IMG/VR virus record: IMGVR_UViG_2690316318_000024
DNA: 9,273 bases
Reading direction: 5' to 3' (one strand)
Origin: a virus
Lineage: Duplodnaviria; Heunggongvirae; Uroviricota; Caudoviricetes
Within the stretch, counting starts at the first letter, position 1. Every line of letters starts with the position of its first letter. Shown piece by piece: positions 1,607-1,774 of the stretch. The notes beneath the pieces were generated by a model. It searched no databases. It was not told the origin of the DNA and saw only the letters and a program-made list of their open reading frames with translations. Made by a program: the position numbers and the translations under genes.

Positions 1607-1774
1607 CCCCGCGCCAATCTAACGGGCAATAGTTTCAATTGATGGCCAGCACACACCTTCGTCATTACTGAAATCAGCCAGGCGGGCCATAATTGCCACG
1701 CTGGATAATTTCATGCCTGACGCTGCGCAACCATCCCATACATAGCCGGTTAATTTAGTGCTCATGACCGACCT

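Follow-up and report, generated by a model that had tools for sequence, protein, structure and literature searches.

A nonsense codon in the lambda-O-like replication initiator of an Escherichia albertii prophage is very probably a recent loss-of-function mutation

Introduction

The nearest described relative of the replication initiator analysed here is yfdO of CPS-53, a cryptic prophage of Escherichia coli K-12, which belongs to the same family. At 98% identity, YfdO corresponds to the C-terminal 122 residues of our initiator, and the two genes have the same neighbourhood: yfdO is located directly upstream of the PerC-family gene yfdN, with yfdP, yfdQ and yfdR nearby. Like ours, it is an inactive replication gene whose prophage is stranded in the host. 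K-12 has lost the N-terminal two thirds of the gene, including the HTH domain and the iterons, and CPS-53 is a heavily eroded, older remnant, whereas the gene described here has its full length with one base changed, its presumed origin repeats are intact and the prophage is nearly identical to copies that appear to be active.

The second system for comparison is lambda. According to PMC6022878, a lambda prophage that can be derepressed and cannot be excised kills the cell by replicating in situ, and the survivors are mutants in replication initiation. The amber mutants of lambda gene O likewise carry nonsense codons in an O-type initiator that has the origin inside its own gene. These lambda mutants come from laboratory selection, and suppressor hosts are used to propagate them. 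The pair of integrase and replication defects in the prophage described here could be the natural counterpart of the survivors of lambda "replicative killing". Our initiator shares only the family with lambda O (PHROG 391, HTH_36), and it is not followed by a P-like loader gene.

Loss of the recombinase with immunity kept results in irreversible lysogeny, termed "grounding" (PMC6379469). Grounded or domesticated defective prophages of enterobacteria include e14, Rac, Qin and DLP12, and the prophage described here occupies the e14 site in icd. The described grounded prophages are old and have suffered deletions; here, in contrast, a very early stage is seen, with five substitutions and one 33-bp deletion compared to intact copies. 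We analysed a stretch of 9,273 nucleotides of this prophage, which is referred to as the window.

Results

The initiator gene encodes a winged-helix protein of the O-like family

The gene for the lambda-O-like replication initiator is located on the minus strand (824..1765). Its frame runs from the ATG at 1765 to the stop at 826..824 and comprises 313 codons with a single internal stop. With this stop repaired, residues 1-313 match the complete profile of PHROG 391, "replication initiation O-like" (profile positions 1-298/298, E 1.4e-135). With the stop changed to Gln, the Pfam domain HTH_36 (PF13730) is found on residues 23-70 (E 4e-11, 42.9 bits against a cutoff of 25), and a GntR match covers residues 41-76. 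Homologues are single open reading frames of about 290-340 residues, and the orthologues in E. coli and E. albertii are intact proteins of 313 amino acids. Because its frame is interrupted by one nonsense codon, the locus is a pseudogene member of the PHROG 391 initiator family.

Behind cI, which is encoded on the plus strand, the minus strand carries a cro-like gene, a CII-like gene (phrog_101), orf112/DUF4222 and the initiator gene. The initiator is thus found in the position of the early rightward operon, after the cro/CII-like genes. It is followed by genes for a PerC-family protein, Dam, a LexA-like protein and RusA; a gene for a P/DnaC/DnaB-like helicase loader was not found among these next genes directly downstream. 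A downstream P-like partner gene is a trait of lambda itself and not of PHROG 391. The start of the PerC-family gene overlaps the initiator stop (824-827).

The fold was taken from an AlphaFold model of an intact homologue that is 97% identical (mean pLDDT 71.5). The model has an N-terminal winged helix, in which residues 3-16, 20-32, 43-50 and 54-66 are helical and residues 70-88 make up a beta wing. Helices 43-50 and 54-66 form the HTH pair, and the recognition helix begins at Met54. The linker (residues 102-160) is disordered in the model with a pLDDT below 50, and the C-terminal domain (residues 162-278) is a helical, confidently folded and conserved module. Foldseek comparison of the N-terminal part retrieved MarR/ArsR winged helices with probability 1.0 and a TM score of up to 0.65 on the target. 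The fold comparison was more informative than the sequence search against solved structures, which yielded only marginal MarR matches (E about 0.08).

Inside the initiator gene, repeats of the TGACGGGTCAGATTT type with a spacing of 15 bp are located at 1393..1467 (families D1/D2), where they encode the SDPSKSD linker. The array contains at least four units in this interval, and weaker copies are found from 1322 onwards. Linker length and repeat number differ between homologues, and the linker is predicted to be disordered. The array is presumed to represent the iterons of a candidate phage origin, by analogy with ori-lambda, which sits inside gene O (PMC6022878). None of the mutations of the clone described below touches the array.

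An amber codon replaces an invariant glutamine in the HTH domain

The initial annotation had described a TAG at 1621..1619 that splits a continuous initiator-type HTH, and both the stop and its location are borne out. Codon 49 (1619..1621, minus strand) is TAG and interrupts the peptide ...PSIETIAR*IGAGMSTVRTAIARLEAEGWL...; the HTH_36 match (residues 23-70) spans this codon, and in the model of the homologue it falls within the final turn of the first helix of the HTH pair. The underlying change is CAG (Gln) to TAG, seen on the plus strand as G-to-A at 1621.

An alignment with intact homologues, proposed earlier as the way to find the ancestral codon, identified it as CAG. The alignment contained 22 homologues from Escherichia, Salmonella, Citrobacter, Klebsiella, Pantoea and Rahnella; Gln49 is invariant in all of them, and so is the dipeptide Arg48-Gln49, down to 56% identity. 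CAG is present in 11/11 intact relatives, and TAG in 9/9 contigs of the window's own lineage. The 31-mer centred on the TAG was found in none (0/5,426) of the complete E. coli genomes, while its CAG version, which served as positive control, was present in 321 of them at 100%. A 71-mer around the initiator stop had matches in 1,626 E. coli genomes, the best of them 70/71. Since the homologues are continuous at this position and the Gln is invariant, a natural gene end or domain boundary at codon 49 is ruled out. A natural split gene and programmed read-through or recoding were considered as well and rejected, as the intact sister prophages carry sense codons.

The N-terminal stub (1619..1765, minus strand) has 48 residues and comprises helices 1-2 together with the greater part of the first helix of the HTH pair; it has neither the recognition helix nor the wing. 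Counting 48-residue stubs in databases as a measure of TAG frequency was tried and rejected: the exact 48-residue sequence was found on 313 contigs, and the 10 that were fetched proved to be contig ends and not amber carriers. In these 10 draft E. coli assemblies (L015-L024) the contig ends at nucleotides 143-146 of the gene, which is where the amber codon sits in the window, and two metagenome contigs start at nucleotides 158-160 of the initiator gene. The breaks at nucleotides 143-146 probably mark the boundary of the sequence that co-resident prophages have in common.

The double-amber prophage is confined to one E. albertii clone

The window corresponds to bases 1-9273 of contig CYCK01000044.1, and the host is Escherichia albertii. 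The assembly, GCA_001286085.1, has been annotated and typed as this species (PMC8715443). The chromosomal flank (icd-rluE-nudJ-mnmA-hflD-purB-phoPQ) reaches an identity of only 91.3% with each E. coli genome, and the prophage is located at the e14 site in icd.

Read error had been named as an alternative to be excluded. At least 6 independent assemblies contain both the TAG in the initiator and the TAG in the integrase. Gene products split into 48 + 260 aa and 86 + 251 aa are found in the isolate GCA_001286085.1 on contig CYCK01000044.1, and also in the ENA metagenome assemblies ERZ24773310, ERZ28614028 and ERZ27259814 and in several Logan-assembled runs. Because the same stop is present in independent assemblies, it is not a read error. 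Over the window, three contigs of the same clone show 100% identity, and another two deviate at one or two positions. Both stops are carried by all contigs that cover the two genes; an intermediate with a single amber codon was not found among them.

A search with the repaired integrase retrieved intact proteins of 375 amino acids with 100% identity. On the contigs that encode them, the same prophage occupies the icd site, and its integrase (375 aa) and initiator (313 aa) are of full length. The nearest intact copy (L123, GCA_002965845.1), compared over the whole window of 9,273 nt, differs at positions 419, 1226, 1621, 4713 and 8405, and by one 33-bp indel near 5528. The host flanks of the intact copies differ from those of the window's host by 1.0-1.5% (other E. 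albertii) or by 7.2-7.7% (three assemblies), whereas all amber contigs share one common flank with at most 1 SNP in 9.1 kb. Because nearly identical intact copies are found at icd in hosts that are 1–8% diverged, the phage must have moved recently and the prophage was recently active, while the double-amber version is limited to a single clone. The ambers arose after lysogeny, in this one clone. The statement that the prophage is otherwise intact refers to about 18 kb of prophage that were compared.

E. coli relatives had been tried as reference for the private mutations of the clone. They gave 65 candidate positions, because the int and yfdQR modules are without a close E. coli relative (the closest are only 95-97% identical), and they were replaced by the intact icd-site prophages.

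With an ancestral Gln codon, a reproducible stop and near-identical intact copies, one of the two possibilities raised by the initial annotation, that of a replication-defective prophage, is supported. Because near-identical intact copies of the prophage exist, the stop is derived and arose recently, in a single clone. We are confident that the TAG is a recent loss-of-function point mutation and not a feature of the gene.

The integrase carries a second amber codon at a former Dcm site

The gene for the tyrosine integrase, an e14-type (icd-site) enzyme, covers 8146..9273 on the plus strand (375 codons). A second amber codon had been noted here, and the frame is indeed open except for a TAG at 8404..8406, which makes this gene a pseudogene, too. 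Relatives have TGG (Trp87) at this position. The W87 amber precedes the catalytic domain. A 71-mer around the integrase stop had matches in 169 E. coli genomes, with 70/71 as the best. Both stops are thus a single base away from a large number of intact genes.

The integrase mutation is a G-to-A change at 8405, which converted a Dcm site, CCTGG, to CCTAG (8402..8406, plus strand); on the minus strand, the changed base is the inner C of CC(A/T)GG. Assuming that the host has Dcm, the change would correspond to deamination of the methylated inner C. Coulondre et al. reportedly described in 1978 that deamination of 5-methylcytosine at Dcm hotspots gives amber codons in lacI. Amber hotspots at the second C of CC(A/T)GG are known (PMC12606429). 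The integrase amber shares this property with the lacI hotspots and the initiator amber does not: its context, CCGT[C]AGAT (CGT CAG ATT), contains no Dcm site. Because the site is not a Dcm site, the initiator amber is the result of plain cytosine deamination or a replication error.

Further lesions of the clone

Two further clone-specific C-to-T changes on the minus strand lie in the window: R137C in the PerC/YfdN protein (419..419) and a synonymous change in Ser180 of the initiator (1226..1226). A fifth clone-fixed change, G-to-A on the plus strand, results in Dam A202V and is located 271 nt left of the window (L025:1584). The 33-bp deletion is also clone-specific; its junction (5527..5546) lies between two direct repeats of 18/19 bp, GTTGTTGGGGA(A)TAACCAG, of which both copies are present in all E. 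coli and E. albertii relatives. The deletion is located 16 nt upstream of the start of an ECs1072-family gene (5078..5512, minus strand).

The gene for the CI-like repressor (3074..3760, plus strand; HTH and peptidase S24 domains) is intact and identical to the copy in the intact prophages, and immunity is presumably kept. Convergent with it and overlapping its 3' end is a gene for a BRCT-domain protein of 296 aa (3743-4633, minus strand). The 3' end of the repressor gene is a typical place for an accessory or defence gene expressed in the lysogen. In one sub-lineage (L030) the BRCT-domain gene has a 1-nt deletion; decay is thus continuing in the clone.

All fixed substitutions affect the same strand

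The mutation spectrum was determined over 11.1 kb of prophage and polarised against the intact copies and the E. coli relatives. Five substitutions are fixed in the clone; all are G-to-A on the plus strand, that is C-to-T on the minus strand, and they comprise two nonsense, two missense and one synonymous change. The sub-lineages have two more derived G-to-A changes, at 2108 and 7531, and the sole other substitution is one T-to-C. Altogether, 7/7 G:C-to-A:T changes are on one strand (two-sided probability about 0.016). This pattern fits strand-biased cytosine deamination, with replication asymmetry, a repair defect or a deaminase as candidate causes. Assuming the gene order of K-12 relative to oriC, the mutated strand would be the lagging-strand template. 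Cytosines in the lagging-strand template have been reported to be deaminated more (Bhagwat et al. 2016, cited in PMC6263442).

Discussion

Probable grounding of a recently active prophage

These results can be combined to a history of the element. An active lambdoid temperate phage of the e14/CPS-53 type, which integrates into icd, lysogenised one Escherichia albertii lineage. Afterwards, minus-strand C residues were changed to T at five places in 11 kb in one clone; one of these changes turned CAG (Gln49) of the initiator gene into TAG, another one TGG (Trp87) of the integrase gene into TAG at a Dcm site. An initiator that ends at residue 48 and so stops short of the recognition helix and the wing should not be able to bind the iterons in its own gene, and without iteron binding replication could not be started from the prophage origin. 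The integrase would be cut after its arm-binding domain, and the prophage should then be unable to excise. The outcome would be a "grounded" prophage that is inherited only vertically and in which the repressor, the origin DNA and the rest of the early and lysis genes examined have been preserved. In principle, a co-resident phage with the same type of initiator could still replicate the element, as its repeat array is intact. As a whole, this explanation, recent loss of function resulting in a grounded prophage in a single clone, seems to us very likely to be correct. The recombinase defect that grounding involves is present (W87 amber), and whereas several host lineages carry intact relatives, the double-amber form occurs in one.

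The prophage represents ordinary prophage decay, a new instance of a well-known process that has been caught early. It shows the beginning of grounding in a clean and datable form, as five substitutions and a small deletion separate the intact phage from its descendant; hosts of the intact form diverge by up to about 8%, whereas the mutant occurs in a single clone. The lesions hit precisely excision and replication initiation, and a lysogen that loses both functions is predicted to be safe.

Selection or drift

A less certain part of this history is that the double loss was favoured by selection, in that loss of the initiator would remove the risk of in situ replication. About 5% of the possible G:C-to-A:T changes in the region are nonsense, and the probability of at least 2/5 is 0.024, a value that is based on five mutations and on target genes judged post hoc. 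Selection for a non-excising, non-replicating prophage is weakly supported; we favour it over drift because there is a mild excess of nonsense changes and because joint loss of both targets is expected to protect the lysogen.

Drift in the clone would be sufficient as an alternative. Chance hits with a C-to-T bias that were fixed by drift or hitch-hiking would amount to neutral decay only, which we regard as a real possibility, though not the probable one. There are only five substitutions to draw on, their 4:1 ratio of non-synonymous to synonymous changes equals the expectation without selection, the probability given above is not strong with the genes singled out after the fact, and other lesions are still accumulating in the clone. 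On the other hand, nonsense changes (2/5) are about ten-fold above the per-mutation expectation of 5%, they have hit the two functions that, when lost together, are known to leave a lysogen protected, and inactivation of the same initiator gene recurs independently. In another E. albertii copy (L121:2895-3593, GCA_002563295.1) the initiator gene has a 1-nt deletion at about codon 201 and the integrase is intact; assembly error aside, this deletion appears to be an independent inactivation. Among the database proteins, two initiator variants (P0095 and P0070) are frameshifted and fused, and the YfdO remnant of K-12 is a further case of independent inactivation.

A possible conditional phage, restarted protein or suppressed stop

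A further reading is based on the strand pattern of the mutations. The prophage would have been hit by strand-specific cytosine deamination, either through exposure of single-stranded DNA to a bacterial DNA deaminase or through an Ung/Vsr repair defect in the clone, and the double-amber element, with its origin, repressor and lysis genes retained, may persist as a phage that is conditional on a helper or a suppressor. We consider this combination unlikely.

Residual initiator activity could also arise within the gene itself, by low-level read-through of the UAG or by a restart at Met54. The ATG of Met54 (1606) lies 12 nt past the stop and in frame, and it opens a downstream reading frame of 260 codons (824..1606, minus strand) that gene callers annotate as a separate CDS. 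A weak termination-reinitiation product that has lost half of the winged helix is possible. If reinitiation from UAG49 to AUG54 gave a functional protein of 260 residues, this protein would be without DNA binding and would have kept the C-terminal domain; it might then be dominant-negative on related superinfecting phages or titrate a host replication factor. The position of AUG54 would allow this, the C-terminal domain (162-278) is a confidently folded, conserved module, and K-12 retains a C-terminal remnant of 122 residues that is 98% identical and annotated as CDS. The SD-like pairing at Met54 is weak, however (-4.5 kcal/mol with zero spacing, compared to -6.5 kcal/mol with proper spacing at the true start), and the fragment is unchanged since the stop arose, so that its conservation is not informative. 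With the 260-codon fragment as query, no Pfam family reached the cutoff: HTH_36 is gone, and sub-threshold PaaX/GntR matches remain. We regard a functional restart protein as quite improbable.

Still less credit is given to a suppressor-dependent gene, the other possibility raised by the initial annotation, in which an amber-suppressor tRNA in the host or in a co-resident element would keep both proteins at full length and the prophage conditionally viable. Both stops are UAG, and a tRNA that inserts Gln would restore the wild-type initiator exactly. The shared stop type is already accounted for by the mutation spectrum. TAG makes up 22/35 (63%) of the G:C-to-A:T nonsense paths in the initiator and 17/40 (43%) in the integrase, which results in a joint probability of 0.27 for two ambers given G:C-to-A:T nonsense; a suppressor is thus not needed to explain it. 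Moreover, a double-amber prophage in one host background with an intact sister in several is the pattern of an immobile element, and the intact ancestor uses sense codons. No tRNA gene was found in the window or in the contigs L003, L004 and L006 of the same clone (11.6-20.4 kb). Amber suppression is unnecessary and, from the stretches examined, unsupported. A sequencing or assembly error or a natural two-gene arrangement is almost certainly not the explanation, since the identical TAG is present in nine contigs from independent samples and assemblers, and the homologues are single 313-aa reading frames with invariant Arg48-Gln49.

In the E. albertii genome, the CDS pairs of 48 + 260 aa and 86 + 251 aa should be annotated as pseudogenes. 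A further annotation concerns the region just upstream of yfdP, where RefSeq lists a "frameshifted hypothetical protein" in the E. coli relatives for which this interval was fetched (e.g. L010:7099-7409; about 5600-5930 in the window). This reading frame may be a conserved pseudogene, a mis-annotation or a case of programmed frameshifting.
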